Made by a program: the position numbers and the translations under genes. Under the pieces are notes generated by a model. It was not told the origin of the DNA. It was given only the letters and a program-made list of their open reading frames with translations, and ran no database searches. A stretch of DNA of 64,000 nucleotides from Candidatus Levyibacteriota bacterium (GTDB lineage Bacteria > Patescibacteriota > Microgenomatia > Levybacterales > UBA12049): NCBI GenBank assembly GCA_016186645.1, contig JACPLF010000006.1, positions 124,808 to 188,807 of the forward strand. The letters are read 5' to 3'. Of the stretch, positions 14,503-55,673 are shown piece by piece. Each line of letters opens with the position of its first letter. Position 1 is the first letter of the stretch.

Positions 14503-14513
14503 GATTTAAGAAT
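14481..14513. repeat. 33-bp direct repeat copy 1 spanning the murE stop codon (AGAATTAAGATTTAAGAATTAAGATTTAAGAAT)
   Basis: Near-identical (32/33) to 15852-15884. Encodes the ...ELRFKN* C-terminus. Confidence 0.6.
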
Positions 14514-15873
14514 GAAAAAGATACGCTCAATCCACTTCGTAGGAATTAAGGGTGTTGGAATGACTCCTCTGGCAATTATTGCCAAAGAAGCAGGAATGAG
14601 CGTTTCCGGTTCGGACATCGCAGAAGAATTTATCACTTCACAGCTTTTAAAAAAAGCAGGAATTGTTCCTTTTGTTGGTTTTTCAAAAGAAAATGTTAAG
14701 AATCCGGATTTAGTTATAACAACCGGAGCGCATGGCGGATTCAACAATGTTGAAGTTTTGGAGGCAAAGAAGAAAAACATAAAAGTTATAACTCAAGGCG
14801 AGGCGGTTGGGATTTTCATGAAAGGAGAAATCTTTGGAAGAAGGTTAATCGGAATTTCTGTAACAGGCACACATGGAAAGACCACTACAACAGCAATGAT
14901 TGCTACAATGCTTAAAGACTGCGGGCTTGATCCGTCTTTTGTAATTGGGACTGGAAATATTTTGTCTTTGGGATCATCAGGCCATTTTGGGAAAGGGAAA
15001 TATTTTATAGCTGAAGCAGATGAGTACATGACAGAACCCAACTTTGACAGAACGATAAAGCACATGTGGCAGCATCCAAAAATTGCCGTAATTACAAATA
15101 TTGAATTTGATCATCCGGACGCATATAAATCTTTGGATGATACTCGGGAAAAATTTCTTGAATTTGCCAATCAGTTGCCAGTTCAGGGGGTTTTAATTAT
15201 ATGCGGAGATGATCCTCAAGTTAAGAAACTTCTTTCCGAGTTTAAGAGTAGGAAAATAACCTACGGATTTGATAAGAATAATGATTTTGTCGTCGACGAA
15301 GTTTTGAAAGGTATTAAGTTATCTGTTTTTGGAGATCACAATAGACTAAATGCTACTGCAGCTTTCATAGTAGGTATTGAAGTAGGTCTTGAAAAAGAAA
15401 ACATTAGAGAAGGCTTAATTGCATTTAAGGGGTCGAAAAGGCGGTCTGAATTGGTAGGTAGGCTTGAATCCGGAGCTTTAGTTTACGATGATTATGCTCA
15501 TCATCCCACAGAAATTAAAAGAACTTTGCAGGCTTTCAGAGAAAACTTTCCAAACTCAAAAATAGTCTGTATTTTCCAACCCCATACATATTCTCGAACC
15601 AAATCATTGTTCGAACAATTTAGTAGCTCTTTTGATGACGTTGATACTGTTGTTTTAACTAAAATATTTTCTTCCGCGAGAGAAAAAGTTGATCCCACAG
15701 TTTCAATGCCTGATTTAGCTACAAAAATTGGCAAAAAAGCCTTATTTTTGCCTAATCTTTCTGATGTGGTAAAATACCTAAACAATCAAGATTTTGGTGA
15801 GGGGACTATTGTGATTACTATGGGAGCCGGAGATGTCTACAAGATTAGCAAAGAATTAAGATTTAAGAATTAA
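14512..15873 (+). CDS. murC: UDP-N-acetylmuramate--L-alanine ligase MurC
   Basis: N-terminal IHFVGIKGVGMTPLAIIAKEAGMSVSGSD and P-loop GTHGKTTTTAMIA. Confidence 0.8.
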   Translation: MKKIRSIHFVGIKGVGMTPLAIIAKEAGMSVSGSDIAEEFITSQLLKKAGIVPFVGFSKENVKNPDLVITTGAHGGFNNVEVLEAKKKNIKVITQGEAVGIFMKGEIFGRRLIGISVTGTHGKTTTTAMIATMLKDCGLDPSFVIGTGNILSLGSSGHFGKGKYFIAEADEYMTEPNFDRTIKHMWQHPKIAVITNIEFDHPDAYKSLDDTREKFLEFANQLPVQGVLIICGDDPQVKKLLSEFKSRKITYGFDKNNDFVVDEVLKGIKLSVFGDHNRLNATAAFIVGIEVGLEKENIREGLIAFKGSKRRSELVGRLESGALVYDDYAHHPTEIKRTLQAFRENFPNSKIVCIFQPHTYSRTKSLFEQFSSSFDDVDTVVLTKIFSSAREKVDPTVSMPDLATKIGKKALFLPNLSDVVKYLNNQDFGEGTIVITMGAGDVYKISKELRFKN

Positions 15874-15884
15874 GATTTAATAAT
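15852..15884. repeat. 33-bp direct repeat copy 2 spanning the murC stop codon
   Basis: AGAATTAAGATTTAAGAATTAAGATTTAATAAT. MurC therefore also ends ...ELRFKN*. Confidence 0.6.
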
Positions 15885-20695: not shown

Positions 20696-20752
20696 TTCGG
20701 CAATATTCGGTAAGATATGGCAACATTCGGCAATATCTGGTAATATAGATTC

Positions 20753-25808: not shown

Positions 25809-27101
25809 ATGGTAGATGGAAAAATAGTCGTAGGTGTTGATATCGGTACCTCAAAAATTGTTACTATTATTGCAAGAGTAGAGAATGAAATTGCAAATGT
25901 GTTGGGAGTTTCAGAAGTTGCCTCCCGAGGCGTTAAAAAAGGCCAAATAGTAGACATAAAAGAAGCAGTTGAATCTATTAATAATTCACTTGATGGAGCC
26001 GAAAGAATGGCTGGCTACTCTGTCTCTCATGTGGCTGCTTCAATCGGCGGAGGACATATTGAGTCTCAAAATTCAAGAGGCGTTGTTGCAGTATCATCTC
26101 CTCAAGGGGAAATAACCGAAAGTGATCTTGCTCGCGTAATTGATGCGGCTAAAGCAGTTTCTCTTCCATCGAGCCGCCAAATTGTTCATGTTTTGCCTCG
26201 TAATTATGTTGTTGATGGACAAGAAGGAATAAAAGATCCAATTAGTATGACTGGGATAAGGCTTGAGGTAGATACTCATATTATCTCAGCTGCTTCCACG
26301 TCTTTAATGAATTTAGAAAAAGCTTTTTCCCAGGTTGGTATCGATATTGATGGGGTTGCTTTCAGCGGATATGCATCCAGCCTTTCGGTTTTGTCGGAAA
26401 CGGAAAAAGAATTAGGAGTTGTATGCGTAGATATTGGAGCGGGAACAACAGACATATCGATTTATTCGGAAGGATCAGTCGCATATTCTTCCGTATTACC
26501 AATTGGCGCCAGACATATAACAAATGATTTAGCAATAGGTCTTAGAATTTCTTTGGAGAGCTCTGAAAAAATTAAAATTTATTTATCCAATACCCGAAAA
26601 AACCCAAAAATAGAAAGACTTGGAGAAACATTTGAAAAAGAAAATATAAATAGAGATGAAGTAGACTTAAGCTCTCTAGGTCTGCCGGAGGATCTTAGAA
26701 AAGTTTCTCACAAAACATTAACAGATGGAATAATTAGGCCTCGGCTTAATGAAATTTTTACCATGATAGGAATAGAAATTAAAAGGTCAGGATACGCGGG
26801 ACAAACACCTGCGGGGATTGTAATAACAGGAGGCGGAGCGTTAACTGTTGGAATAGCAGATAGCGCCAAAAGAACTTTGGCAATGCCGGTCAGAATTGGG
26901 CTGCCAATTAATATAAAGGGCCTAATTGATGAAATAGAAACCCCTGCTTTCGCAACTGTTGTAGGGCTTGCGGTTTTCGGCGGCAGTCTTGATGTGAGAA
27001 AATCTTTGCCTTTCGGAATTAGTCTTCCTTCCTTGGGAAATTTGGGATTTAACAAAGCGCTTTCCCGTCTTATAAATTTAATCAAATCCTTCATGCCATA
27101 A
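25809..27101 (+). CDS. ftsA: cell division protein FtsA
   Basis: Actin-like ATPase motifs (VVGVDIGTSKIV and CVDIGAGTTDISIY). C-terminal amphipathic ...LINLIKSFMP*. Confidence 0.85.
   Translation: MVDGKIVVGVDIGTSKIVTIIARVENEIANVLGVSEVASRGVKKGQIVDIKEAVESINNSLDGAERMAGYSVSHVAASIGGGHIESQNSRGVVAVSSPQGEITESDLARVIDAAKAVSLPSSRQIVHVLPRNYVVDGQEGIKDPISMTGIRLEVDTHIISAASTSLMNLEKAFSQVGIDIDGVAFSGYASSLSVLSETEKELGVVCVDIGAGTTDISIYSEGSVAYSSVLPIGARHITNDLAIGLRISLESSEKIKIYLSNTRKNPKIERLGETFEKENINRDEVDLSSLGLPEDLRKVSHKTLTDGIIRPRLNEIFTMIGIEIKRSGYAGQTPAGIVITGGGALTVGIADSAKRTLAMPVRIGLPINIKGLIDEIETPAFATVVGLAVFGGSLDVRKSLPFGISLPSLGNLGFNKALSRLINLIKSFMP
27081..27101. repeat. ftsA 3'-end sequence ATCAAATCCTTCATGCCATAA (copy A, inside ftsA)
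   Basis: Direct repeat with 34138-34161 and 34971-34995. Confidence 0.6.
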
Positions 27102-27143
27102 CAGAATATTGCAAAGGAAGTTTTGAGTGTTGTAAAATAAATT

Positions 27144-30100
27144 ATGCCAGTAGATATGACACCAGAAACAGAAAGCGGACATCATCCTAATGGAGAGGGG
27201 GGGGCAGAATCCCCTTTGCCGGAGATAAGGCTGACCCAAGTTGTTAAATCGGCATCTCCAGTTGTTCCAGAAAGAATTTTAAGGGAAAAGACCATGGAAG
27301 AAAAAGCCTTGCTCGTGCCTTACGGGGAATACACGTTTCTTATTGTAAGGGATTCCGGCAGAATTGCTCTTTTGGACGCAAATGGCAAGAATGTAGAGGA
27401 ATTTGCCAACTTGGGGTCAACGATGATTCTTGATTGGGATAGTATCAGAACGAAGAGGGTTACACGAATAACTAGATTAACAGCAGCCGGGAAAGAAGAA
27501 ATTAGTGTGCATGAATTGAAAGATCCAAAATTAAAGAGAGCGGCTAGTGAGAAATTCAGCTATTTAAACGTAGATTCTATGGAAATTCCACCTCCATGGA
27601 AATTGGACGATTCTCATCCCGGACAGATTCATTTCTCCATTTCTAGAAATGGTATTATTTTTGGCTCAGGTGAAATAGTGGGTTTTCGTACAACGGACGA
27701 GCATGATATTCCTTATCCTGTTCGAAACTGGATAAGGACAGATAATGCTAGTGTTGATTTTAAAGATAGACTGTTTTTGCAAAATATGGCGATTGGGCTT
27801 CCTACACTTACTAAAGAAGTGGCAAAATTGCCGCGCGGTGTTGATGCGTTTGGCAGAACGGAGTATATAGTAAACGCTTCGGATGAACTTACGCTTCATT
27901 TGGGTGATGACAAGAAGGTTTACTTGGGGCGCGTAGACGCGGGAGGACGTATCTGTGTTGATCCTACGGAGAAAGATGCAGTTTACTTTCTAAGCCAGCA
28001 AAATCCTACTTATTTACTCAAGATAGATGCATCAGCGGAGCGCATTTCACAGAGACAGCGATTGGAAGCTCAACATTTACCTTTCCCTAGAGATTTTGGT
28101 GCGGTTAAATCCATATCCATTGATCCGCAAGGCAGCTTTTTCATGCTAGAAACAGATAAGGGAATCGTTCTTCTGGAAAAAGGTACACTTAAGGAGTTGA
28201 AGGATGCTCCTGGTTTTTCTTCGGCGCATTTTGATTCAAAAGGAAGAATAGTTGCTCTAGATAACAATGGGTACTTTGTTATATTGCAGCCGGATTTAGA
28301 GGAGTATCGTAGAGCAATTGAAAAGGCAAAGATGGAAGGGATTGTCAGAGGAGCAACAGCGGATTTATTTGGAAAAGAAGAAGCTGAAACCGGAAAGGTT
28401 GATGTCGATAAATTTAAGCATCTGTTGCCAATAAGGACAAATTTGCAAAATGATTTCGATCCTCAGATACGTAAAATCAAAACTTTTAGTGAGACAACCG
28501 CAATTTCACGAGCTCTGGATACATTAAGATCCCGCCTTGGGTCCCAAGGACTAAATCCCGAACAAGTATTATTTATCACAAAAGGAATAGAAGAGGCAAT
28601 ACGAGCTAAACAACAGGAATTGGCTATGCCATTGGTTGTTCAAGGATTGGCGGATTTACAGGGCAAGCTTTCAGGAGACTTAACTGTAGCTGTTCTTTCT
28701 GAAGCCAGAGACGATCTTACCAAATTAAAATCTTTGGAAGGGTTCGTTGATGAAGGGACGCGCGCCAAAATAATTGCTTTGGAAAAACAATTAAGTACGC
28801 AGAGCTCTGAGTTTTTTCGTAGAGAAAGCCCGGTGATTGAAAAATATGGTAGCGATATTGTGCAAAGGGAAATAACAAGACTTGTACAGATAACAAGTAA
28901 ACCTGATTTTGACGATTGGCAAGAACATACATTGCCTCAGCAGTTAAGGAGGCTAACGGAATTGATCAATAATTATCCGCCAGACGCTCCTTCAGAGACA
29001 TTAGAGAGACTTCTGTCTTTTAGCAAGCAACTGCGGGACATGGCTAGGGAATATGAGATTAAATTTAAAGAAAGATATGCGGAGGTTCGTCAAAGGGGAT
29101 CTGTAATAATGGGTGAAAGAGTAGGATTAATTGAATCAGACATAGTTTCGTTTGCTGAAAGACTTAGAGGTAGAGGTTTTAAGGATAGGATGCAGGCAGA
29201 AACTCATATTGGATCAAGTGAGGCATTGGGAATCCTTCGATCTGACATTGAAGAGCTTGCAAGGCAAAATCCGGATGCAGCAAGAGAGTTAGATAGGACA
29301 CTGAAAGCGCAAATTGCCAACATAATGTTTGAAATTGAGCGTGGCGGGCTGACAACAATTGCAGAAACTGGTCAGCAAATGGAGTTATTTGGAAAGACTC
29401 TATTTCCAAGATGGGAAGCCCCAATCAAAGAAAAGACTCAAAAAAAAGTTGATCTTATTTTTATCCCGAATGAAAGATCAGAAGGCCCAGGAATTTCTCC
29501 AGATAGAATTTACGGCGATGTGGGGCTTGCTGTTATAAATTCACGGGGCAAGGTAGCAAGAGTAAGACTTTTTGAGGGATGGGAGAAGGAGAATGCAGTT
29601 AGATTGGGCATATTGCCTTTAATTCCACCATCCTATGTTACGTATGCTGAGTTTGGGGAAATAAGAAAGGCATATATGGACTGGAATATCGGAGAGAAAT
29701 CAAAGATTCGGCAAGAGCTTGCCCAAAGAAGCAACGTGCTTCGGGAGTGGCGAAAAGCAAGACTAGGGCAACACAAATCTCCTCAGGAAGAGGAAGAATG
29801 GAAAGACTTACTTAGAGATTATGTAAGTTTTTATGCTGAAAATTATATCTCTATTTTGCATCGTGTGGATCGTGTAAAAAAAGCTCCGGAGGGCGAGTAC
29901 GAGAATGGAAAAGGTTTTGTTCCTGAGTGGCAAAGCCATTGGACAGTAGACGAAACCACAGAGCACTATTTGGAAGAAATGGCTAAGGCTTCCGGAATGC
30001 AGCTTGATTTACAAGAAGGCTTACTTAATCTTAAGGGGCATGCGGGAACAGGAAAAGACGTACTCGTAAAAATGTTTAGCAATCGAACAAACAGGCCTTA

Positions 30101-30998
30101 TTTTACAATTGACTGCTCAAAATGGACAACAGAGTTCGAACTTTCAGAAGACGTAGTGCTTGAAGCAGAAGACGGCGCGTCAAAAACAGTAAAAGTCCCA
30201 TCAGTTGTTTTAAACGCTATAACAACCCCTGGTGCAATTATGTACTTCAATGAGATTAACGCCATGCCGGAACAGGCACAGATTTTCCTGCATGGATTAA
30301 TGGATGAAAAAAGAACATTGACTCTCAAAACAAGTTCGGGAAAAGCGGTTAAAACTTTGCCTAGTGTGCTTTTGATGGGGTCGATGAATCCGGGATATCC
30401 GGGCACGTTTAATCCCCAATTTGCAACTAAGAGTAGAATGGTTGGACTAGAAATAGATTACCCTCCATTATATGGAGAAAGAGGAACAAACGATCCTAAT
30501 CCAAACCCTCCAATAAGCGCTGCTGAGGCATTACGGGTTGCTCGACAAGTTGATTCATTGGCTGATTTTACCTATGAAGCCAATCCTAAGCACAATGAAT
30601 TCGTACGAATATGGGACAGGTATGTTAATGGGATTCAAAATGGAGCGCCTGACTTAAATCAAGTACAAAGATTTGATGTTGAAGCTATTTTGACAATGGT
30701 GGAGTTTGCACAAAAACTTAGGGAAGGATTTATACTGAAGTTTGAAAAAGCAAGGGCATCGTCAATTCCTAAGGGAACACTTTTAGTTGATCAGCCAATA
30801 ACAGGAAGAGAAATGAGAAGAATGGCTTACTTTTTAAGCAAAATGTCTCCAGAGGAAAAGGCAACAGCTAATCCAGAAGCAGTAATAAGAAGTCTTATTG
30901 AAAGATTCTTCCTGTCCCATATTGATAAGAAAGATGAGAGGGATGAAATAAGAACAGCAATGGCTACTTGGACGTCGTCCAAGAGACCGGCAGCTTAG
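27144..30998 (+). CDS. giant (1284 aa) protein with a C-terminal MoxR/AAA_5-class AAA+ ATPase domain and a roughly 900-aa unassigned N-terminal region
   Basis: P-loop GHAGTGKD, Walker-B-like IMYFNEIN, FLHGLMDEKRTLT and sensor region LLMGSMNPGYPGT align to MoxR-family signatures. No signal peptide. Confidence 0.65.
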   Translation: MPVDMTPETESGHHPNGEGGAESPLPEIRLTQVVKSASPVVPERILREKTMEEKALLVPYGEYTFLIVRDSGRIALLDANGKNVEEFANLGSTMILDWDSIRTKRVTRITRLTAAGKEEISVHELKDPKLKRAASEKFSYLNVDSMEIPPPWKLDDSHPGQIHFSISRNGIIFGSGEIVGFRTTDEHDIPYPVRNWIRTDNASVDFKDRLFLQNMAIGLPTLTKEVAKLPRGVDAFGRTEYIVNASDELTLHLGDDKKVYLGRVDAGGRICVDPTEKDAVYFLSQQNPTYLLKIDASAERISQRQRLEAQHLPFPRDFGAVKSISIDPQGSFFMLETDKGIVLLEKGTLKELKDAPGFSSAHFDSKGRIVALDNNGYFVILQPDLEEYRRAIEKAKMEGIVRGATADLFGKEEAETGKVDVDKFKHLLPIRTNLQNDFDPQIRKIKTFSETTAISRALDTLRSRLGSQGLNPEQVLFITKGIEEAIRAKQQELAMPLVVQGLADLQGKLSGDLTVAVLSEARDDLTKLKSLEGFVDEGTRAKIIALEKQLSTQSSEFFRRESPVIEKYGSDIVQREITRLVQITSKPDFDDWQEHTLPQQLRRLTELINNYPPDAPSETLERLLSFSKQLRDMAREYEIKFKERYAEVRQRGSVIMGERVGLIESDIVSFAERLRGRGFKDRMQAETHIGSSEALGILRSDIEELARQNPDAARELDRTLKAQIANIMFEIERGGLTTIAETGQQMELFGKTLFPRWEAPIKEKTQKKVDLIFIPNERSEGPGISPDRIYGDVGLAVINSRGKVARVRLFEGWEKENAVRLGILPLIPPSYVTYAEFGEIRKAYMDWNIGEKSKIRQELAQRSNVLREWRKARLGQHKSPQEEEEWKDLLRDYVSFYAENYISILHRVDRVKKAPEGEYENGKGFVPEWQSHWTVDETTEHYLEEMAKASGMQLDLQEGLLNLKGHAGTGKDVLVKMFSNRTNRPYFTIDCSKWTTEFELSEDVVLEAEDGASKTVKVPSVVLNAITTPGAIMYFNEINAMPEQAQIFLHGLMDEKRTLTLKTSSGKAVKTLPSVLLMGSMNPGYPGTFNPQFATKSRMVGLEIDYPPLYGERGTNDPNPNPPISAAEALRVARQVDSLADFTYEANPKHNEFVRIWDRYVNGIQNGAPDLNQVQRFDVEAILTMVEFAQKLREGFILKFEKARASSIPKGTLLVDQPITGREMRRMAYFLSKMSPEEKATANPEAVIRSLIERFFLSHIDKKDERDEIRTAMATWTSSKRPAA

Positions 30999-31013
30999 TT
31001 ATGCAATACAGAT

Positions 31014-34000
31014 ATGGATATGGATACAGAAAGAGGAGAAATACCGCGACCTCCGCAGAAAGATGGACTTGCTAGAGAAAAAATTTTTCTCGCAGAGCAA
31101 GCCTCGGAAGGTGATTTAAAAGTAGTCCCCGGAAAAAATTGGGCGTTCCACTATCCTCACGGTGCGCAAGCACGATCTGATGCCATTTCTGGTCTGCTTG
31201 ATGGGCGGACTAAGCCGGAAGATGTACTTGGTGATTTAAAACCAGACGCCTTTACCTATGATGTTGCTGATCTTGAACATCAAGGTTTAGTTTCGGTTGC
31301 TGGAAGAGTTAGAGATGTTTCGGCATATGTAACTCATTATGATTATTCCCGATTTGCTCAGTTTGTAGCTAGCTTGCAGGGAACAGGTATAACTCCTGAT
31401 ACAGCTCAATCTCTTTATGATGGTATAGCTCAAAACAGAATCCGTAAAAAAATGATCGAGGCTTATGGATATACAGGCAGAAAGCAAATGGAAGAAGCTC
31501 TTAAGTTGGAAGCAGAGAGAGCTGTACAGCAAATTGGCAGCCTTCCTCGCGTTGAGAAAGTGTTGGCGGCCTTAAAAATGAACTGGATGGCCGAAGATCA
31601 GCTTGCTAGAACTGAGCAAAGAGATCAAACAGTAGGACAACTGTCTCCTGATGAGCGTCAGCTTTATGATCTGCTGAGAGATCCTTACCAAGACTACGTA
31701 AGAAGGGGTGATCAATCTGCTTATGAAAGTTTGGTAAATGGGGTAAAAGAGAATATCCCTAAAATTCAACAAGAGCCAGAGAAGCCAGAGGAACCGCAAA
31801 GGGATGAAGCTCAGGAGAAGCTTGAAGAAGAATTGGAAGAATATAAAGATGAAGCGGTGCCGCCCGTTACTCCTGGAGATCCGGGAATTCCGCCTGAAGA
31901 TTCTGACGAATACCATACTCCTTCATCTCCCCCATGGGAATCTGAAGAGGAAGCATCTTCCCATCCGTATTTTGAAATAACTCCAAATGGAACGAGTACT
32001 AAGCCAATGACAGGATATTATGCAAGCGGCAGAAAAAGCCATTACGACATTGATCAAAAAACATGGAGTAAGAAAAAGCAACTCGTTTCTTATGGTGCAA
32101 ATATAAATGGGAATGAAAGGCAAACTATTTCGGCAACAGTAGGCAAGGGGCTTACATCTATACCTATACCAAATGGGTACGGATTGGATATGCAGTCTCT
32201 CAAATTCACAGGTGACAGGCCTGAAATTTTCAGAGATCAAAATGGATGTTTTTATATAAAAACTGATGGAGGCAGTACGTTTTCAATAGATTTCTTAAAA
32301 GAAAATCCTGTTTTTTCTGGTTCCCCAATAGCAGATGATATAGTGCCTATCCATAGAGGACAGCTTTCTATAGAGACGGAAAACGCAATGACTGGTTTAG
32401 TTGGCAGCGATTTAGAAAAAGCAGAAGCGCTTCGCAAATATTTACTCTCAAAACATTTTTATCCCGGCGATGGTGATTTGCAAATGGCGCAGGCTTTGCA
32501 GCTTAAGCTAAGAAGTGAGTCTGCAGGAGACAATTATATTCAAAATCTTGACAAATCGGAGTATCTTGAATGCTATTCTGCGAATACGCTTTTTATAGCA
32601 ATGCTCAGGAAAATTGGTATTCCCGCAAGATTAGTTATTGGCCACCGAGTAGAAAACGCAAAAAATGGCAAAGCAAGCATTAATTCAACTACCGGTCACG
32701 CTTGGACTGAAGTATGGGATGGTAGTGCTTGGAGAAGAATGGATGCAACGCCACGACCAAAACAGCAAAAGAAAGATCAAAAGGGCGATTCAAATTCTCC
32801 TACTCAGGAAGCGCAGGATGGAGGGATTGAAGGACAAGGTCAGCCACAGCAAGATCAACCTCAGCAGGGGCAAGGTAGTCAATCTGGCGAGTCAATGCCA
32901 GGTCAGCAAATGGGTGAAGCTTCCGACCAAGACATAGCTCAAGGAGAATCACAACTTGACAATGCCCAACAATTTTCGGAGCATTTGGAGCAGGAAAAGC
33001 AAAGCTTAGACCAAAAACTTGAAAATGCGGAGTCCTTCCAAGATTTAAAGAAGTTAGAGCAGGAAGCTCAGGAGTCTGATTTGTTTGATGACATGAAACA
33101 AGATTTACAAGACAGGTTAGAAGCAAAAGAGGAGCAGATGAAAGAAGCAATTAAAGAAAATCTTGATGAAATGGTACAAGACGGATTTTTAGATGAGGAG
33201 AGGAGACAGGAACTTGAGAGACAGCTTGAAGAAAATAAATTAGAAGAACTCGATCGAATTAGACAGCAAATTGAGCGGGAAAGCAGGTTATTTAATGAGT
33301 ACCAAGATATCAAGGAAGAAGTAGCGCCTTTGGTTGATCAGTGGTTTGATTACTTTGTAGAACGATTGCCAAGGCAGAAAGAAGTTGAGCTGGATGAAGA
33401 TTCACTTACCCGACAGGGGGCTTTCAATAGACATTCTGTAATGAAACCAAGGAATTTGCTTTTCGGAACTGTTAAAAATCCCCGAGTTATTAAGCCGTCA
33501 ATTAAACCAAAATTTTTAGCTTCAGTTATGGTTGACGTAAGCGGTTCAATGGCTGGAGAGAAGTTAAATATGGCAAGGAAACAATTGGTTTTCTATAATG
33601 AACTCTTTTCAAGGATTAGCAGTGAATTTGGTTTTATAAGGTATGCAAATAACATCTTTTCTGATAATTTAGTTGAACTCAAAACTTACGATCAAGATTA
33701 TGAAAGTCCTGTAAGATACGATTGGGGAGATGGTACTCGGTCAACAATTAAAGCGCGTCTTATGCAAGCGCTTCATACACAAGGAGGGACAAATATGCTC
33801 CCGGCAATTCAAAAAGCAGCAGCAGATTTAAATAAAGAAACATTTGAGTATCCAGATTATGCTTCTGCTTTTTATTTTGTTGGAGATGGGGAAGATACAT
33901 CTGGAAATTCAGCGAGAATTAAAGAGTTTTTAGGATTACTGGATTCTGAACATGGATTCGGAGAACATATGCTATCAGCAATAATGCTAGGAGATGAATC

Positions 34001-34136
34001 TCAAAGAAGAGGATTGGCCGCTATTTTTGGAGATGAACATACAACAGTTGCTCCAGATTTTGAAGCTTTGATCGAACAAAGTATGTACAAATTTGATGAA
34101 GACATAGAAGCGTATTTACGAGATAAAACTATATAA
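31014..34136 (+). CDS. giant (1040 aa) transglutaminase-like, coiled-coil and von Willebrand factor A (MIDAS) fusion protein
   Basis: Transglutaminase core Cys-His-Asp context (ECYSANTLFIAMLRKIGIPARLVIGH...GHAWTEVWDG...RMDATP). Q/E/D-rich low-complexity linker and a heptad-like charged region. vWA MIDAS motifs DVSGSM, GGTN and GDGEDT. Confidence 0.7.
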   Translation: MDMDTERGEIPRPPQKDGLAREKIFLAEQASEGDLKVVPGKNWAFHYPHGAQARSDAISGLLDGRTKPEDVLGDLKPDAFTYDVADLEHQGLVSVAGRVRDVSAYVTHYDYSRFAQFVASLQGTGITPDTAQSLYDGIAQNRIRKKMIEAYGYTGRKQMEEALKLEAERAVQQIGSLPRVEKVLAALKMNWMAEDQLARTEQRDQTVGQLSPDERQLYDLLRDPYQDYVRRGDQSAYESLVNGVKENIPKIQQEPEKPEEPQRDEAQEKLEEELEEYKDEAVPPVTPGDPGIPPEDSDEYHTPSSPPWESEEEASSHPYFEITPNGTSTKPMTGYYASGRKSHYDIDQKTWSKKKQLVSYGANINGNERQTISATVGKGLTSIPIPNGYGLDMQSLKFTGDRPEIFRDQNGCFYIKTDGGSTFSIDFLKENPVFSGSPIADDIVPIHRGQLSIETENAMTGLVGSDLEKAEALRKYLLSKHFYPGDGDLQMAQALQLKLRSESAGDNYIQNLDKSEYLECYSANTLFIAMLRKIGIPARLVIGHRVENAKNGKASINSTTGHAWTEVWDGSAWRRMDATPRPKQQKKDQKGDSNSPTQEAQDGGIEGQGQPQQDQPQQGQGSQSGESMPGQQMGEASDQDIAQGESQLDNAQQFSEHLEQEKQSLDQKLENAESFQDLKKLEQEAQESDLFDDMKQDLQDRLEAKEEQMKEAIKENLDEMVQDGFLDEERRQELERQLEENKLEELDRIRQQIERESRLFNEYQDIKEEVAPLVDQWFDYFVERLPRQKEVELDEDSLTRQGAFNRHSVMKPRNLLFGTVKNPRVIKPSIKPKFLASVMVDVSGSMAGEKLNMARKQLVFYNELFSRISSEFGFIRYANNIFSDNLVELKTYDQDYESPVRYDWGDGTRSTIKARLMQALHTQGGTNMLPAIQKAAADLNKETFEYPDYASAFYFVGDGEDTSGNSARIKEFLGLLDSEHGFGEHMLSAIMLGDESQRRGLAAIFGDEHTTVAPDFEALIEQSMYKFDEDIEAYLRDKTI

Positions 34137-34137
34137 A

Positions 34138-34161
34138 CTCGTCAAATCCTTCCTGCCCTAA
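34138..34161. repeat. ftsA 3'-end-like direct repeat copy B (CTCGTCAAATCCTTCCTGCCCTAA)
   Basis: Non-coding copy 2 nt after the vWA gene stop. Would encode LVKSFLP*, compared with the ftsA C-terminus IKSFMP*. Confidence 0.6.
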
Positions 34162-34183
34162 AAACTTTTGATATAATCATCCC

Positions 34184-34627
34184 ATGATCGAAAGACAGCC
34201 CTATGTGGAGCGTTATCAGGTCATGACTCCGCAGCAACGAAATGCGGAAATGAAAGGGTTATTTGCACTTCTTCCAGATGCCGACGTAACTTGGTCAGCT
34301 TTTCAGGGATTATTAGAATTGTTACAGCCCGAGGATATAAAAGAAAGACTTGCTTCTATAGATCTACATTTTGCAGAGAAAAAAGATATTTCTGATCATA
34401 GGAGAGCTTCTGTATTAAGACAGAATTTGACCGTGCGGCTAAATACTCTGTTGTCTTTTTCAATGATTACAGATGCCTTTAAAGTCTGTATCGCTGATGT
34501 GTTTAATCACAATTTTGACGTAGGCGTAAGTGAAGAAACATTAGTAGGTTGGATATTCCCCAGTGGAAGAAAATGGTATGCAGATTTGTTCCAATGGGAC
34601 CAATTAGAGAACGGTGGGATATTTTGA
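34184..34627 (+). CDS. hypothetical protein (147 aa)
   Basis: ORF lying between repeat copies B and C. No motif recognised. Confidence 0.35.
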   Translation: MIERQPYVERYQVMTPQQRNAEMKGLFALLPDADVTWSAFQGLLELLQPEDIKERLASIDLHFAEKKDISDHRRASVLRQNLTVRLNTLLSFSMITDAFKVCIADVFNHNFDVGVSEETLVGWIFPSGRKWYADLFQWDQLENGGIF

Positions 34628-34823
34628 TAGACAACAAGCAAGAAAGATAGAGCAGGAAGCGTATGTGTCTGCAATCGATCAGTATTTGAGACAGGAACTA
34701 CCTTATGAAGAAGAACAGGATGAGCCATTGGATGAAGAAAGCTTGGAAAATGAACGAAAACAAAAAGAAATTATTGAGAGATGGAGAGGTGAATTTATTC
34801 AGCGCTATGGTGACGAGCCTTAA
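34614..34823 (+). CDS. small acidic hypothetical protein (69 aa), possibly the frameshifted continuation of the previous ORF
   Basis: Starts 14 nt before the previous ORF's stop in another frame. Highly acidic (EEEQDEPLDEESLENE). Confidence 0.3.
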   Translation: MGYFDRQQARKIEQEAYVSAIDQYLRQELPYEEEQDEPLDEESLENERKQKEIIERWRGEFIQRYGDEP

Positions 34824-34970
34824 AATCTGAATAAGTTTTGATGTTTCCTCCAAAGGCGGACAGGTCGAAAGATTGAAACGAATTCATTTTCTTTTTTGTT
34901 ATCTCCATACCCGTACAACATTACGCTATAGCGTATCACTGTACCAGCACTAACTTTTTAAGCTATAAAA

Positions 34971-34995
34971 CTTCGTCAAATCCTTCATGCCATAA
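34971..34995. repeat. ftsA 3'-end-like direct repeat copy C (CTTCGTCAAATCCTTCATGCCATAA)
   Basis: Non-coding copy about 60 nt upstream of purN. Preceded by the 14-bp palindrome TACGCTATAGCGTA at 34922-34935. Confidence 0.6.
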
Positions 34996-35056: not shown

Positions 35057-35785
35057 ATGAAAGAAAGATTGGCGACTTTAATTTCAGGGGGCGGTACCAC
35101 AATGCAAGCAATCATAGAAGCTTGTCAATCCGGAGAAGTTCCAATGGATATTGCTTGTGTTATTTCCAGCAGTCCTACTGCTGGCGGAATAGAAAAAGCA
35201 AAGCGCTTAGGAATTCCGGACAAAGATATTGTTGTGATTGATCCAAATAAATTTAAGGGTAGAGATAAAAAAATGGATCAAGACGCATTCGGTTTTGCAA
35301 TTTTACAAACACTACGAAAACGCGGGGTAACTGTTGTTACTCAAAATGGCTGGCTGCCCCTAACTCCACAAAGTGTTATAGATGAATATTCAGATGCGAT
35401 ATTTAATCAACACCCAGGCCCGGTACCGGAATTTGGAGGCAAAGGAATGTATGGGAGAAGAGTGCATGCCGCAAGATTGTTGTTTGTTCGGGAAACGAGA
35501 AGAAATTTTTGGACAGAGGCTATTGCTCAAAGAGTCCATAGAAATTTTGATCAAGGATCAGCAGTTAAATCTGAGCAAGTTGATATTCTTCCGGATGATA
35601 CAGCTGAAGATTTACAAAAAAGAGTTTTGCCAATTGAGCATCGAGTGCAAATTGAATTACTTAAGGATGTTGCTCGCGGCAATGTTAAGGAAGTAACAGG
35701 AAGGGAAAAACTTGTACGTCCCGGAGAAGAAAGAATTTTATTTCAGGCAAAAAAAGCAGCAAGATTATTGTATCCGTATGGATAA
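35057..35785 (+). CDS. purN: phosphoribosylglycinamide formyltransferase PurN-like
   Basis: N-terminal ISGGGTTMQAII loop and formyl-transferase fold order. 242 aa. Confidence 0.7.
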   Translation: MKERLATLISGGGTTMQAIIEACQSGEVPMDIACVISSSPTAGGIEKAKRLGIPDKDIVVIDPNKFKGRDKKMDQDAFGFAILQTLRKRGVTVVTQNGWLPLTPQSVIDEYSDAIFNQHPGPVPEFGGKGMYGRRVHAARLLFVRETRRNFWTEAIAQRVHRNFDQGSAVKSEQVDILPDDTAEDLQKRVLPIEHRVQIELLKDVARGNVKEVTGREKLVRPGEERILFQAKKAARLLYPYG

Positions 35786-36893
35786 ACGCAGGGGAAAGAA
35801 AATAACGTATAAATCATCAGGAGTTAATTATCAGGATTTGGATCCTGTGAAAAAACTTGCGCAAAAGGGAGCTTTAAAAACTGCGAGAAATCTTAGGAAA
35901 AACGGATATAAAGAAATTTCTGAGAGCCGAGGAGAATCTGCATTTGTTTGGCAGCAAGGTAATTTTTTGATGGCATCTGTCATTGAAGGACTTGGAACGA
36001 AAAATCTTGTTGCAGATATAACAGCGCAAATTACCGGCAAATCTTATTACGATATTATTGGCCACGATACTGTTGCAACAATAATAAATGATCTGATTGC
36101 TGTCGGAGCAAAACCGTTGACTATAAGTGCGTATTGGGCGGTAGGCCAAAGCGATTGGTTTAAGAATAAAAAAAGGACAAAAGATTTAATAAGGGGATGG
36201 AAAAGAGCATGCAATCTGGCGGGTGTTACGTGGGGCGGCGGAGAAACGCCAACTCTAAAAGGAATAATTCGGGAAGAATCAATAGATCTGGGAGGGTCTG
36301 CGATTGGAATTATTTCTCTAAAGAAAAATCTTATTACGGATAAAAAATTAAAAATTGGCGATAGAATAATACTTTTAAGAAGCAATGGAATAAATGCAAA
36401 TGGATTGTCATTGGCCCGAGCGCTTGCAAAAAATTTACCAAAAGGTTATGCAACAAAACTTCCAAGTGGAAAAATTTATGGAGAAGCGCTTCTTGCAAAA
36501 ACAAATATTTATGCAAAATTAATACAGGATTTGCTAAATGCAGGAATTGACATTCACTATATTTCAAACATAACAGGACATGGACTGCGAAAAATAATGC
36601 GGGCTCGTTTAAATTTTACTTATATAATTGAAAAAATATTTAATCCTCAAGAAATATTTTTATTTATCCAAAAGCACGCAAATTTATCCTCTTACGAAAT
36701 GTATCAAACATTCAATATGGGAATGGATTATGCTTTATTTATTCCTAAAAAAGATATTGAAAAAGCACAAAAAATTATAACTAAAAATAAATTGGAAAGT
36801 ATAGATGCCGGACGAGTTGAGGAAGGAAAAAAACAAGTTGTGATAAAACCAAAAAACATTATTTTTAATGCAGAGACATTGGGAGTTAGATAA
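35778..36893 (+). CDS. purM: phosphoribosylformylglycinamidine cyclo-ligase (AIR synthase) PurM-like
   Basis: Collinear PurM motifs (YKSSGVNYQDL, IEGLGTKNL, GGGETPTLKG, NITGHGLRK and MYQTFNMGMDY). ATG overlaps the purN stop (ATGGATAA). Confidence 0.75.
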   Translation: MDKRRGKKITYKSSGVNYQDLDPVKKLAQKGALKTARNLRKNGYKEISESRGESAFVWQQGNFLMASVIEGLGTKNLVADITAQITGKSYYDIIGHDTVATIINDLIAVGAKPLTISAYWAVGQSDWFKNKKRTKDLIRGWKRACNLAGVTWGGGETPTLKGIIREESIDLGGSAIGIISLKKNLITDKKLKIGDRIILLRSNGINANGLSLARALAKNLPKGYATKLPSGKIYGEALLAKTNIYAKLIQDLLNAGIDIHYISNITGHGLRKIMRARLNFTYIIEKIFNPQEIFLFIQKHANLSSYEMYQTFNMGMDYALFIPKKDIEKAQKIITKNKLESIDAGRVEEGKKQVVIKPKNIIFNAETLGVR

Positions 36894-36949
36894 ATTGTTC
36901 CATTGACTTTTGGAAAACAGGATGTTAGGATAAGTTGATTCCTTAATAT

Positions 36950-38062
36950 ATGTTAATAAAGCCTCAAACAACAAATTTCGCAAAGATTAGGGTCATGGGG
37001 ATTGGCGGAGGGGGAATGAATGCCCTTAACTCTATGATTACCTCAAGCGAAGTCAAGGGTGTAGATTTTATTTCAGTTAATACAGATGCGCAGGTTCTTC
37101 TTTTATCCAAAGCCCAAACAAAAATCCAAATAGGTGAAAATTTGACAAAAGGACTAGGAAGCGGGGGAAATCCGGATATAGGACGTCAGGCTGCAGAAGA
37201 ATCTTACGAAAAAATAAAGGAATTTATTGATGGATCGGACATGGTTTTTATAACTGCGGGTATGGGAGGCGGAACAGGAACCGGATCAAGTTCTGTTATT
37301 GCTAGAGCGGCAAAAGAAATCGGAGCTCTGACAGTTGCAGTCGTCACCAAGCCTTTCGCTTTTGAAGGAACCAGAAGAATGGTGGCAGCAGAAGATGGAA
37401 TAGAGGAGCTTCGGGAAAAAGTCGATACATTAATCGTTATTCCAAATCAGAGAATTTTGGATGTTGTTGATAAGAAAGTTTCTCTTCTTGAAGCTTTTAG
37501 AATTGCAGATTCCGTATTAACTCAAGGAGTACAGGGAATTTCGGATTTAATTACCATTCCGGGCCTAATCAATGTTGATTTTGCTGATGTAAAAGCAATT
37601 ATGAGTTCTGCTGGATCAGCTCTTATGGGAATTGGAACCGGATCTGGGGAAAATAGAGCACAAATTGCAGCAAGATCGGCAATCGCATCTCCTCTTTTGG
37701 AAATTTCTATGGATGGAGCGCGCGGAGTCTTGTTTAATATTACCGGAGGACCTGATTTGACAATGACAGAGGTTGATGACGCAGCCAAAATTATTTCAGC
37801 AGCAGCAGATCCGGATGCGAATATTATTTTCGGCGCCACAATTGATGAGGCAATGCATGACCAGATAAAAATTGCAGTTATCGCAACCGGATTTGATCAC
37901 ACCCGCCAAACTCTCAAAGAATTTGTAAAGCCAATTGTGAATATGGCACCCTTGAAGATTGAAGTTAAAGATAGCCAAGAGCCAACGCCACAGGAGCCTC
38001 CTCAGGAGGACAATAACGACGACGCCTGGGACATTCCCGCTTTTTTGAGGCAGAGGAATTAA
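36950..38062 (+). CDS. ftsZ: cell division protein FtsZ
   Basis: Tubulin signature GGGTGTG, N-terminal [14 protein letters not shown] and C-terminal conserved peptide [10 protein letters not shown]. Confidence 0.9.
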
Positions 38063-38073
38063 TCAAAAAAGGG
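38036..38073. repeat. ftsZ 3'-end sequence (copy Z0) CCCGCTTTTTTGAGGCAGAGGAATTAATCAAAAAAGGG
   Basis: Direct repeat family with copies at 39776-39815, 39834-39865 and 40492-40522. Confidence 0.6.
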
Positions 38074-38152
38074 ACTTCGCTTCGGCTACAGCCCGCATTC
38101 TTAAGCTATTGACTTGTTACATTCTTCTGTGGTATAGTATAAATACTAAATC

Positions 38153-38193
38153 GCCCTGTGAGGTCGTAAGACATTTGCAGGGCTTTATTTTTT
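38153..38193 (+). terminator. rho-independent terminator downstream of ftsZ (GCCCTG-19 nt-CAGGGC + TTTATTTTTT)
   Basis: 6-bp GC-rich stem followed by a 10-nt T-rich tract. Confidence 0.55.
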
Positions 38194-38209
38194 GCTGTAA
38201 TATCAACAT

Positions 38210-38746
38210 GTGAAGCAAAAATGTATAATTCTAATCGATGGAAGTAACTTTTATTTCAAGCTTAAAGATTTAGACCTACACAATCTTTTATCTTTTGACT
38301 TCAGTCTTTTCATTCAGCTTATTGCCAGGTCTTGCAAAGTTGTAAATGCATGTTACTATGTTGGCCGAATTAGACAAGATGGAAGCAGTAAAACCAATAA
38401 ACTTTTTGATAGCCAACAAAAATTGCTTGGTAATCTTAAGAAGCATAGTATTTCATATCAGTTTGGTTACTTATTAAAAAGCGGAGGAGCGTATCATGAA
38501 AAAGGTGTTGATGTACAGATTGCAGTAGATATGTTGGTTTCTGCTTACGAAAATGTTGCGGATCGGATTATTCTTGTCTCTTCCGATACTGATTTAGCGC
38601 CTGCAATCAAAAAGGTGCGTGAAAAAGGGAAAATCGTAGAATACATAGGATTTTCCCACAAACCGAGTGTCGCAATGGTTAGTTTTTGTTCGGAATCAAC
38701 ATTATTAAAAAAAGAGGATTTACTACCTTTTATCAAATCTAAATAA
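38210..38746 (+). CDS. NYN/LabA-like (PIN-fold) domain protein
   Basis: CIILIDGSNF start, KGVDVQIAVDM and ILVSSDTDLAPAI motifs typical of LabA/NYN domains. Confidence 0.6.
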   Translation: MKQKCIILIDGSNFYFKLKDLDLHNLLSFDFSLFIQLIARSCKVVNACYYVGRIRQDGSSKTNKLFDSQQKLLGNLKKHSISYQFGYLLKSGGAYHEKGVDVQIAVDMLVSAYENVADRIILVSSDTDLAPAIKKVREKGKIVEYIGFSHKPSVAMVSFCSESTLLKKEDLLPFIKSK

Positions 38747-38847
38747 ATAATCCCTTAGCCTCAAAACCGCGTCGTAATATAGTCATTGTGCGACATGAAT
38801 TTTGTAGTATATAAAAATAAAATATGAAAATGATATAATTCTTAGGA

Positions 38848-39624
38848 ATGAAGAACGACCTTAAAAAACATAACAGTCTTATCCTTCCTACGCCTCAAGA
38901 GCTCAAAAGAATAAGCGTATCTGACAAACGAGCTGCGGTTGCAAAAATCATAGATATTGTTGGAGGTCTATTTCAATATAATACGAAAGAGTGGATTAAG
39001 ACTGGTGGAAATCTCATCTCTGCATGGTTATCTAACGACCTTGGAGGTGAGGCAAGATTTCAAATGCAAAAGTTGCTTGAAACAGGAAAGTCAAAGAAAG
39101 AAGCCTATGAGACAAGAGAGGGATGGACAAACATTTCTGATGTATTTGGTTATCTCTATTCGGACAAAGCACCGAATGCGGTAGTATTTAATGCACTAAA
39201 GGCAATTCAAATTTCAACAACTGAAAGTACTCCAAGCGAAACGGAATTATTGAAGGCAAATTCGTTCATAAGAATAGTGAAATCGCTAAATCCTGATGAT
39301 ATTCGAGTAATGTTTGCAGCTTATGAGCTCTACAAAAAATACAAAAAAGGGGAATCCTCGAAGATTTCCACTTTTCAGGATTGGTATATTGCTATTTCTG
39401 ATATGGTTAATTTGCCAATAGACAGTGTGGTTGATACGAGGATGAAATATGACTCTGCAGTGAATGGCTTTGCGGGTACATCACTCTTCGGATTATCAGA
39501 ACCTTCCTCATCTACAGTCGGAATGCCAAACGCTGGTTTAAACGCTTTGTCCATTGGAATATGTGAAATGGTGGAAAAGGGAAATGAGATGCTACTGTCA
39601 ATTGATGTAGAAGAAGAAAAATAA
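38848..39624 (+). CDS. hypothetical protein (258 aa)
   Basis: ORF only. No motif recognised. Confidence 0.4.
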   Translation: MKNDLKKHNSLILPTPQELKRISVSDKRAAVAKIIDIVGGLFQYNTKEWIKTGGNLISAWLSNDLGGEARFQMQKLLETGKSKKEAYETREGWTNISDVFGYLYSDKAPNAVVFNALKAIQISTTESTPSETELLKANSFIRIVKSLNPDDIRVMFAAYELYKKYKKGESSKISTFQDWYIAISDMVNLPIDSVVDTRMKYDSAVNGFAGTSLFGLSEPSSSTVGMPNAGLNALSIGICEMVEKGNEMLLSIDVEEEK

Positions 39625-39775
39625 GCATGAGTTCGTATATGCTTCAAGTCTTTAATTTTTAATTGACTTCTTTCTGTCAAACTGTTAAATTCTATTTGAA
39701 GACTTAAAAAGGTAAACACTTCAATCGGGTGCTTTTTAAGATTGTAGCTTCAAAAGTAGGGAATGACTTATAAAT

Positions 39776-39815
39776 CCCCGCTTTTTTGAGACAAAGAAAT
39801 TAGTCAAAAAAGTGG
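39776..39815. repeat. ftsZ 3'-end-like direct repeat copy Z1
   Basis: CCCCGCTTTTTTGAGACAAAGAAATTAGTCAAAAAAGTGG, about 34/40 identical to Z0. Confidence 0.6.
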
Positions 39816-40480
39816 ACGTCGCTGCTGCTCCAGCCCGCCTTTCTAAGACAGAGGAATTAAATTTCATTTGGATCTTGACTTTTTCAATTCTGGTTGCTAG
39901 AATGAGCCAAATGAATAGACAAGAAACCGAATATTCAGAACCATTAGTTCATGCTGAAAGCCTAAGTACATTGGAACGTGAAACTGCCAGCGAGTTTGGC
40001 GCAATGGTAGATGGATTATTGAGAGATGCGCCGAATGTTGCCGTTCAAGGAAGATATGCGCATGATAAACCGTCCATAAACAAGGGTATAGAATTCGAAT
40101 TCGGAAATAGCACTGTAAAAGCCTCGTTTTTTGAAAGCTTTGGATCACCCCCCGCTTATCGTCTTGAAATCATAACTCCTATTATTGTTGACAATTTGCA
40201 ACACGATTCAAATTCAAGGTTAGGATTATCTCCTCTAAATCCGCATGAATTTGTCGAATTTAGAGGAGATCCTCAAGCTGGGTCGGTTTCTGTGCGGGTA
40301 CGAGCAGTCGATCAGTTAGATCATTCTGGTAACGAAATGACCCTTACTAGATATACTGCAGGAGGTCTACTGCCGCCAATTAATACTTTAGGAGAAGGTA
40401 AAATCGAAGCATTCGAGAGCGTAATTAAGTTATTTAAGAATGTAGTTCCTCAGAACCCAGTTTATAGAAAACGATTCTAG
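39812..40480 (+). CDS. hypothetical protein; the real start is probably the internal Met at about 39901 (MSQMNRQ...)
   Basis: The track ORF N-terminus overlaps repeat Z2. No motif recognised. Confidence 0.4.
   Translation: MDVAAAPARLSKTEELNFIWILTFSILVARMSQMNRQETEYSEPLVHAESLSTLERETASEFGAMVDGLLRDAPNVAVQGRYAHDKPSINKGIEFEFGNSTVKASFFESFGSPPAYRLEIITPIIVDNLQHDSNSRLGLSPLNPHEFVEFRGDPQAGSVSVRVRAVDQLDHSGNEMTLTRYTAGGLLPPINTLGEGKIEAFESVIKLFKNVVPQNPVYRKRF
39834..39865. repeat. ftsZ 3'-end-like direct repeat copy Z2
   Basis: CCCGCCTTTCTAAGACAGAGGAATTAAATTTC, in tandem with Z1. Confidence 0.55.
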
Positions 40481-40491
40481 CTACTTGCAAA

Positions 40492-40522
40492 TGCCGCATT
40501 TTTAAGACAGAGGAATTAGAAG
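40492..40522. repeat. ftsZ 3'-end-like direct repeat copy Z3
   Basis: TGCCGCATTTTTAAGACAGAGGAATTAGAAG. Confidence 0.55.
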
Positions 40523-47423: not shown

Positions 47424-47696
47424 TTGCATTATATGTTTTATATTTATGTACTAAGGAGCGTTAAAGATAAAAAACTGTATTCTGGTTATACATCTGACTT
47501 AAGATCAAGATTTAGATATCACAACCAAGGTAAAGTAGAAGTAACTAAGCATAGAAGGCCATTTAAGCTGATTTATTATGAGGCATACTTGCATCAACAA
47601 GATGCAACAGCAAGAGAGAAATTCCTTAAGACTCAATGGGGAAGAAATTTTTTGAAAAGAGTTCTTAAGAATTATTTTAAAAACTTGGACGACTAG
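47424..47696 (+). CDS. small GIY-YIG nuclease family protein
   Basis: YIYVLRS...KLYSGYTSDLRSRFRYHNQG and KLIYYEAY match the GIY-YIG core. The 3' end overlaps the tRNA by about 10 nt. Confidence 0.6.
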   Translation: MHYMFYIYVLRSVKDKKLYSGYTSDLRSRFRYHNQGKVEVTKHRRPFKLIYYEAYLHQQDATAREKFLKTQWGRNFLKRVLKNYFKNLDD

Positions 47697-47758
47697 CTCA
47701 GTGGTAGAGCGCCTCGCTCACATCGAGGAGGTCGTTGGTCCAATTCCAACGTCGTCCA
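47687..47758 (+). tRNA. tRNA-Val (anticodon CAC)
   Basis: Manual cloverleaf. Acceptor GGACGAC/GTCGTCC, D-arm GCTC-AGTGGTA-GAGC, anticodon arm CCTCG-CTCACAT-CGAGG, T-arm GTTGG-TCCAATT-CCAAC. The T-loop is atypical and there is no encoded CCA. Confidence 0.55.
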
Positions 47759-47760
47759 CT

Positions 47761-51306: not shown

Positions 51307-51322
51307 GCTGATATAATACGAA

Positions 51323-52489: not shown

Positions 52490-52498
52490 AGACTAACT

Positions 52499-55656: not shown

Positions 55657-55673
55657 TAAAATAAGGTATCTTT

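Follow-up and report, generated by a model that had tools for sequence, protein, structure and literature searches.

We describe here an unusual arrangement of displaced gene ends in a 64,000 nucleotide (nt) stretch of a Candidatus Levyibacteriota genome (contig JACPLF010000006.1, positions 124,808 to 188,807; hereafter the window), in which the last codons of ftsA, including the stop codon, recur downstream of the gene as non-coding copies that alternate with small gene cassettes. The ftsA and ftsZ genes, the repeats, and the cassettes between them lie on the + strand, coordinates are window positions, and the ftsA-end repeats are called copies A, B, and C in their order along that strand. 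The ftsA gene (25809-27101) is intact, with Pfam matches to FtsA (4.9e-35) and SHS2_FTSA (4.9e-31), and ends in ...RLINLIKSFMP*, a C-terminus like that of its relatives. The 20-mer TCAAATCCTTCATGCCATAA, which is the last 20 nt of ftsA and served as the query, matches the + strand at the real ftsA end (27082-27101, no mismatches), at 34142-34161 (two mismatches), and at 34976-34995 (no mismatches), with no chance matches in 100 dinucleotide-preserving shuffles. Copy A (27074-27101, repeat family D9) is the working 3' end of ftsA and resembles a left attachment-site junction (attL). Copy B (34126-34161, repeat family D20; core 34142-34161) has a left part that overlaps the stop of the preceding gene and ends in ...LVKSFLP*, and copy C (34960-34995; core 34976-34995) lies 61 nt upstream of purN and ends in ...FVKSFMP*. 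The reading frames of B and C are closed upstream by in-frame stops, and neither copy has a start codon. An earlier note on this DNA, made from the letters alone, had listed these three repeats with their sequences and peptide readings, and recomputation of the matches returns them unchanged.

Copies A and B bracket cassette 1 (27102-34125), which has a promoter-like site (27109-27138), a MoxR-like AAA+ gene (27144-30998; Pfam AAA_5), and a transglutaminase/vWA gene (31014-34136; Pfam Transglut_core and VWA_2), whose stop at 34136 precedes the copy B core and falls 2 nt before the repeat as the earlier note delimited it. Copies B and C bracket cassette 2 (34162-34959), which has an extended -10 motif (TGATATAAT), two open reading frames (ORFs; 34184-34627 and 34614-34823) without Pfam matches, and a non-coding tail of about 135 nt. 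Every cassette in the window has its own promoter-like site at its start in the promoter scan. Copy C is followed by purN (35057-35785) and purM (35712-36893), both identified with Pfam, and no ftsA-end copy is present on the right side of this pair (35057-36893); the conserved ftsZ promoter (TTGACT-17-TAGGAT, 36903-36931, recognized by the promoter scan and in relatives) and ftsZ then follow. The two cassettes proposed in the earlier note are present between the repeats as it described them, and, relative to most relatives, purN and purM also intervene between ftsA and ftsZ.

Copies B and C are 83% identical to each other over 36 nt (34126-34161 and 34960-34995), in agreement with the additional 5' context that the note had ascribed to them, and their likeness reaches about 15 nt further to the left than the likeness of either to copy A. 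This common left flank (12 of 16 nt, CTATA(T)AAAC(T)TCG) is present despite the two copies ending two unrelated cassettes, and homology to ftsA starts at one and the same position in both. The right halves of the ftsA copies are well conserved and the left flanks are degenerate, presumably because only the right part of a copy carried at the attachment site of an incoming element (attP) ever serves as a gene end. The motif CTATAA(A), which is rare in the window (18 occurrences, both strands counted), is also found at the left edge of the right attachment site (attR) in the integrase-bearing elements described below that lie at the ftsZ end of three relatives (L180, L186, and L187; L-numbers denote loci of relatives). 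In both displaced copies there are amino-acid variants that typify other lineages: copy C agrees with the working FtsA end of L085 at every one of its last 24 nt, and copy B is similar to the real end in L086. The right part of copy C together with its flank matches working ends and flanks of relatives, and ftsA itself stays full length with its conserved ...KSFMP* end after insertion. From the common left boundary and flank of B and C, and from the occurrence of CTATAA(A) at the attR of ftsZ elements, we infer that each ftsA copy marks a site-specific junction.

Four assemblies made independently from different sequencing runs (L001, L183, L184, and L185) all have the order A, cassette 1, B, cassette 2, C, purN, which is therefore not an assembly artefact; together with the shuffles, these assemblies rule out both chance and artefact as the source of the copies. 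Comparison with relatives (FtsA identity 67-92% in the set used for the ftsA-ftsZ junction) shows a site that is empty in many genomes and variously occupied in others, and the insertion polymorphism expected from the integration that the earlier note proposed is indeed observed. In the majority of about 80 relatives, ftsZ with its conserved promoter (CATTGACTTTTTAAAAATAGGGTGTTAGGATAAGT) comes within 40-130 nt after the ftsA stop, and the promoter that directly follows the ftsA stop in these empty-site relatives sits after purM in the window. The closest relative (L083, 92% FtsA identity) has an empty site. The site contains only purN in L090, with the ftsA end directly joined to it, a single gene of about 1.1 kb, read as purM without a Pfam test, in L101 and L157, and an AAA_14/DUF4143 ATPase in L135 and L119. 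In L135 a displaced 47-nt ftsA-end copy encodes the FtsA end seen in the relatives L121 and L132. Homologues of cassette 2 directly follow ftsA in L084 and L085, and a MoxR-vWA pair homologous to cassette 1 occupies the same site in L148.

The 3' end of ftsZ in the window has the same anatomy as that of ftsA, with four copies and one truncated copy. The ftsZ gene (36950-38062; Pfam Tubulin and FtsZ_C) ends in PAFLRQRN*, and its last 27 nt (38036-38062) are the reference of repeat family D1. The next segment (38063-38111) consists of a spacer, the first 9 nt of which can pair with the ftsZ codons for A-F-L, and of the truncated second FtsZ-end copy (38098-38111, CCCGCATTCTTAAG), and is followed by one or more cassettes (38112-39776) with a promoter (38109-38138), a gene for an NYN-domain protein (38210-38746), a further ORF (38848-39624), and a conserved right arm (39680-39776). 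Two non-coding FtsZ-end copies with a 30-nt spacer between them come next (39777-39803 and 39834-39860, both PAFLRQRN*), followed by a cassette (39861-40492) with a promoter (39875-39903) and an ORF without Pfam match (39914-40480), and the array is completed by a last copy (40493-40519, AAFLRQRN*, repeat family D1). The sequence downstream of this copy has its homologue in L146, behind the final copy there. Compared with the real ftsZ end, the three full-length displaced copies have synonymous and non-synonymous differences of 4/0, 4/0, and 4/1, and the single non-synonymous difference, in the copy at 40493-40519, is a conservative amino-acid change.

Two features of the ftsZ end deserve separate description. 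First, what we call the empty tandem, an ftsZ end followed by a spacer of about 20-55 nt and a second FtsZ-end copy, occurs in the window at 38063-38111 and 39804-39860 and also in L004, L083, L113, L120, L126, L157, and L162. Its spacer starts with nucleotides complementary to the A-F-L codons; these co-vary with the choice of codons, giving three spacer types, and the spacers of the window and L113 are identical over 36 nt even though the adjoining gene ends differ synonymously; a permutation test for the hairpin is weakly significant (6 observed, with a maximum of 6 in 300 permutations). Second, a strong promoter-like site (TTGACT-18-TATAGT) is followed by a conserved hairpin and T-run (ACTAAATCGCCCTGTGAGGTCGTAAGACATTTGCAGGGCTTTATTTTTT) at 38109-38200, and this unit recurs just after ftsZ in L003 and L141. 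It has no Rfam match, and could be a small RNA or a leader.

Displaced gene ends are not confined to the window. A scan for peptides that precede a stop codon and match the end of a long ORF, run over 80 loci around FtsZ relatives (species-representative genomes) and 80 loci around FtsA relatives (metagenomes), shows FtsZ-end copies in twenty loci, with two to five copies each. A frame-blind DNA scan of ftsZ-end copies splits the matches cleanly into two classes, in that true copies differ at up to 9 of 27 nt with all differences synonymous (nine synonymous and no non-synonymous differences in L083, L004, and L144), whereas in chance matches that are equally similar zero or one of 9 differences is synonymous. 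Decay is plain to see in several copies, and this, together with the nearly complete restriction to synonymous differences, shows that the copies descend from functional gene ends and then erode, and are not selected as non-coding elements. Copies of the glmS end (LAKSVTVK*) are found in L004 (1674-5016), L131 (2829-4159), L144-146, and L157 (1546-1629, an empty tandem), with a duplicated segment of about 27-33 nt and a sequence after the glmS stop that is complementary to the last codons; none is present in the window, including after the Fic gene. The L004 insert at the glmS end encodes a 1057-residue radical-SAM/B12/Fe-ADH protein, and comparison of this occupied site with the empty site in L005 shows the displaced host end adjoining the host flank. 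We also note that the glmS-Fic intergenic region of the window (20696-20752) contains a tandem of ATTCGGCAA(G)ATATGG-like units (ttcggcaatattcggtaagatatggcaacattcggcaatatctgg), conserved in L085 and L088, which looks like an operator or a direct-repeat binding site before the Fic/DOC gene.

An enzyme associated with the duplications at the ftsZ end came to light in a viral contig. A degenerate FtsZ-end pattern matched an IMG/VR contig (IMGVR_UViG_3300027835_000014; L164/L165) in which a 5.9 kb element lies between two FtsZ-end copies, both non-coding. The element encodes a tyrosine integrase (Pfam Phage_integrase, 1.8e-30) as well as an Mrr-like nuclease, and a second integrase lies beside it. 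An FtsZ protein search in viral contigs gave no match, and the 14 matches there to an 18-mer of the ftsA end all lack extended FtsA-like context and were judged to be chance. At E<=1e-20 the integrase family comprises 326 proteins, with 64-77% identity among the best 120, and those homologues that carry a source name are from Patescibacteria. In six of six chromosomal contexts (L096, L108, L180, L182, L186, and L187) the integrase gene directly follows ftsZ. The gene order in L180, L182, L186, and L187 is ftsA, ftsZ, integrase, and variable cargo with a defence- or toxin-like look (KAP NTPase, zeta toxin, TerB_N, and, in L182, a capsid-like protein), and 5.6-9.4 kb further downstream the local FtsZ end recurs as an attR copy, which in L186 matches the local ...RQRS* variant. 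The attachment (att) site of the family is the sequence that encodes the FtsZ C-terminal peptide, and the architecture at the ftsZ end of these relatives, which is the same as that at the ftsA end, is the work of tyrosine-integrase elements. About 100 nt upstream of attR are conserved between the integrase elements and cassettes lacking an integrase, including 39680-39776 in the window (alignment A2), and this common right arm marks the ftsZ array of the window as made up of integrase-less members, or remnants, of the same element family.

Hybrid junctions are seen directly in three closely related loci. The strains L144 and L145/L146 share 99.9% identity, and what sets them apart is a 3.1 kb insert placed precisely at the ftsZ end and framed by a 31-nt duplication. 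To either side of the insert, the flanks are 100% identical over 770 nt or more. Of the two repeats, the left one has the TAA stop of the insert, and the right one is a hybrid, with GACATT of the insert on its left and TGA of the host on its right. To judge from these junctions, the difference between the strains is of the Campbell type, arising either from insertion or from its precise reversal.

These observations suggest a model for the ftsA array. DNA circles carrying a short ftsA-end-like attachment site would recombine with the last 25-35 nt or so of ftsA in a Campbell-type, site-specific reaction, such that the final codons and stop of the element become the working gene end (attL) and the previous working end comes to lie beyond the insert as a non-coding copy (attR). 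Copy A would be the regenerated end and copies B and C displaced ftsA ends, and two successive integrations at the working end would give the order A, cassette 1, B, cassette 2, C. Copy C would then be the oldest, host-derived end, still adjoining the old flank into purN. A tyrosine integrase would have acted at ftsA in trans, or would have been lost from the cassettes later; both its action there and the order of events are inferred. We favor this explanation, in which cassettes integrate site-specifically, restore the gene end, and accumulate in tandem, as the probable origin of the ftsA copies and cassettes. It is in essence what the earlier note had proposed, and it has gained support from the empty sites at ftsA and from the demonstration of the mechanism at the neighboring ftsZ end, from which it is extended to ftsA.

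Several observations weigh against this explanation. An element-encoded integrase is found only in the ftsZ-end elements of relatives and not at ftsA. The earlier note had remarked that the window has no integrase, and there is no recombinase in it, either by Pfam on ORFs of at least 100 residues or, for three right-end ORFs (60182-63656), by the tyrosine-integrase profile only, and in about 185 loci none adjoins any ftsA-end or glmS-end copy; an integrase hidden Markov model and jackhmmer search over 3516 ORFs from the collected loci returned only the ftsZ-adjacent tyrosine recombinases. The ftsA-end copies are limited to the window and L135, with none at the occupied sites of L084, L086, L131, and L148, and the right junctions of other occupied ftsA-ftsZ sites have no remnant ftsA end except CATAA in L085. 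The four assemblies show no presence/absence variation of the array within the source population. The right arm of cassette 2 is unlike the ftsZ-type arm. Cassette 1 is about as diverged from its homologue in L148 (MoxR 51%, vWA 70%) as are the host genes (FtsA 68%, MurG 55%), and may on this comparison be an ancient resident, with the empty sites perhaps being losses; the end of L119 points to a MoxR block in a third lineage, as would be seen if cassette 1 were old. We also considered whether one integrase could serve both the ftsA and ftsZ sites through a common AAATCC core, and rejected this since the likeness is too short to claim.

The best-surviving alternative is that linear DNA from a relative brought in each cargo, together with a stub of the donor ftsA, through homologous or homology-facilitated illegitimate recombination, and that no site-specific recombinase took part. 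The variants typical of other lineages in copies B and C are as expected of such a donor, and each copy is collinear with its right neighbor in a relative, the ftsA end of L085 with cassette 2 and that of L090 with purN. The 3' part of glmS in L004 falls from 80% to 70% identity with L005 and then to undetectable, with 87% identity downstream, which suggests acquisition of a larger foreign segment by homologous recombination. However, random breakpoints would not yield the same left boundary and common left flank in B and C, double-crossover replacement creates no duplicates, the L144-L145 insert has identical flanks and hybrid junctions inside the repeat, and there is a dedicated integrase family at the sister ftsZ site. 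Homologous import, the alternative raised in the earlier note, explains how existing arrays spread but does not account for the duplication or for the left flank and boundary of B and C, and we consider it unlikely as the origin of the ftsA copies.

A second alternative is that the copies are functional elements kept for their own sake, as terminators, RNA-processing or protein-binding sites, or translated mini-peptides. The preserved peptide reading would fit, as would the conservation across species of the ftsZ tandem of end, spacer, and second copy, and the post-stop sequences at ftsZ and glmS that are complementary to the last codons and in some lineages co-vary with codon choice. Against this, the ftsA copies have no terminator-like site, whose presence the earlier note had named as something that would refute its reading, and their RNA folds are not significant (z-scores of -1.3, -0.4, and -0.4); Rfam reports only a tRNA across the window. 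The ftsA copies are also absent from nearly all relatives, even those with the same cassettes, and the missing start codons, the upstream stops, the decay of copies, and the weak hairpin test leave this explanation very improbable. The weakest alternative, local duplication or gene conversion by replication slippage or template switching with no horizontal transfer, can draw on the identical 3' segment of about 32 nt shared by murE and murC, 24% identical paralogues, as a sign that gene ends are copied locally in this genome, but is the hardest to credit given that B and C differ from A at positions matching the FtsA ends of other lineages, that the intervening cassettes are absent or different in relatives, and that as many as 9 of the 27 nt in an ftsZ-end copy depart from the local gene, each of these changes being synonymous.

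The murE and murC ends themselves (14482-14513 and 15853-15884) contain an identical 21 nt sequence (GAATTAAGATTTAAGAATTAA, encoding ELRFKN*), with identity continuing about 11 nt past the stop, and the common segment consists of roughly 2.3 copies of a 14-nt unit. The corresponding ends are different in relatives, which points to local copying, or to gene conversion, of such an end. Elsewhere in the window, a block of low GC content (47700-63656; 27-35% compared with about 36-42% elsewhere) encodes glycosyltransferases, PMT_2-type membrane proteins, and a polysaccharide flippase, and starts right after tRNA-Val (47687-47759); it could be another acquired island.

Almost nothing is known of how accessory genes are gained and lost in the tiny genomes of the Patescibacteria, or candidate phyla radiation (CPR), and the findings here identify as hotspots the coding 3' ends of ftsZ, ftsA, and glmS within an otherwise conserved cell-wall and cell-division cluster. 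They also identify a widespread and highly conserved tyrosine-integrase family whose att site is the coding sequence of the FtsZ C-terminal peptide, and stacked integrase-less cassettes that include NYN, Fic-like neighbors, Mrr, NOV_C, AAA_14/DUF4143, zeta toxin, and MoxR-vWA genes. The integrase and its short att site are candidate genetic tools for organisms that have none, and the non-coding 'ghost' gene ends offer a simple marker of acquired DNA in metagenome-assembled genomes, where annotators may mistake them for pseudogenes. A bolder and more doubtful proposal, which we put forward tentatively, is that Levybacteria and other Patescibacteria maintain an integron-like cassette platform without an integron, in which integrase-less cassettes are captured, stacked, and shed at the ftsZ, ftsA, and glmS ends by integrases supplied in trans. 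If so, small accessory and defence cassettes would each carry a conserved arm and a copy of the last codons of an essential and highly conserved gene, the coding ends of the cell-division operon would act as programmable landing pads, and the short, conserved tandems (gene end, spacer, second copy) would represent the platform at rest.

Comparison with known systems places these arrays among several types of mobile DNA. Diversity-generating retroelements do not fit, there being no reverse transcriptase domain, and the repeats are only 20-36 nt long with differences that are of synonymous type and not adenine-specific. Tn7-like transposons insert at attTn7 downstream of glmS with a 5-bp target duplication, and resemble the present system in that the C-terminal coding end of glmS, being highly conserved, gives them a safe place to land; a Tn7-like element is nonetheless rejected, with no tns or tniQ domains present and the gene end itself duplicated in place of a 5-bp target site. 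The arrays share with integron cassettes the organization of small, mostly co-oriented, recombinase-less units each ending in a copy of the recombination site, but the cassettes here have their own promoter-like sites and the site is the coding end of a gene. We do not consider this an integron array, as there is no intI in the window, no intI/attI/Pc platform, and the z-scores of the copies are not those of attC-type folds. IMEX elements and pdif modules are integrase-less units moved by host Xer recombinases, and are similarly modules in tandem arrays with short recombination sites at their borders. A dif-like 11-6-11 site is not evident here, however, and the associated integrase is not a housekeeping Xer protein but is element-borne, lying between attL and attR with the cargo.

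Genomic islands and prophages at the 3' ends of tRNA and tmRNA genes, including the tycheposons of Prochlorococcus, resemble these arrays in that their att site extends into a conserved gene at its 3' end, the end is regenerated, and cargo accumulates in tandem at one hotspot. They differ in that the target here is coding, with copies that keep the peptide reading and stop, and in that the local array has no integrase or transposase. Closest are elements that target the 3' ends of protein-coding genes, for which e14 and phage 21 at icd of Escherichia coli are the classic case. In integrative elements more generally, attP carries a fragment of the target gene that restores the gene, and tandem arrays build up (Mageeney et al. 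2020, PMC7192596). The likeness extends to a terminal coding repeat at both ends, an intact target, mainly synonymous differences, tandem arrays, and, in the ftsZ-end elements of relatives, a tyrosine integrase next to attL. The differences are that the targets are ftsA, ftsZ, and glmS in Patescibacteria, that the repeat is only 8-12 codons plus the stop, and that the units in the window are 0.6-7 kb with one or two genes each and no integrase. A search of the accessible literature found no description of ftsZ- or ftsA-end integration in Patescibacteria. What is new is the targets, the coding ends of ftsZ, ftsA, and glmS and thus short conserved C-terminal peptides of essential proteins, together with the CPR hosts, the very short restored segment, and the prevalence of one- or two-gene integrase-less units with a conserved arm, which lend these arrays the look of an integron without its features.

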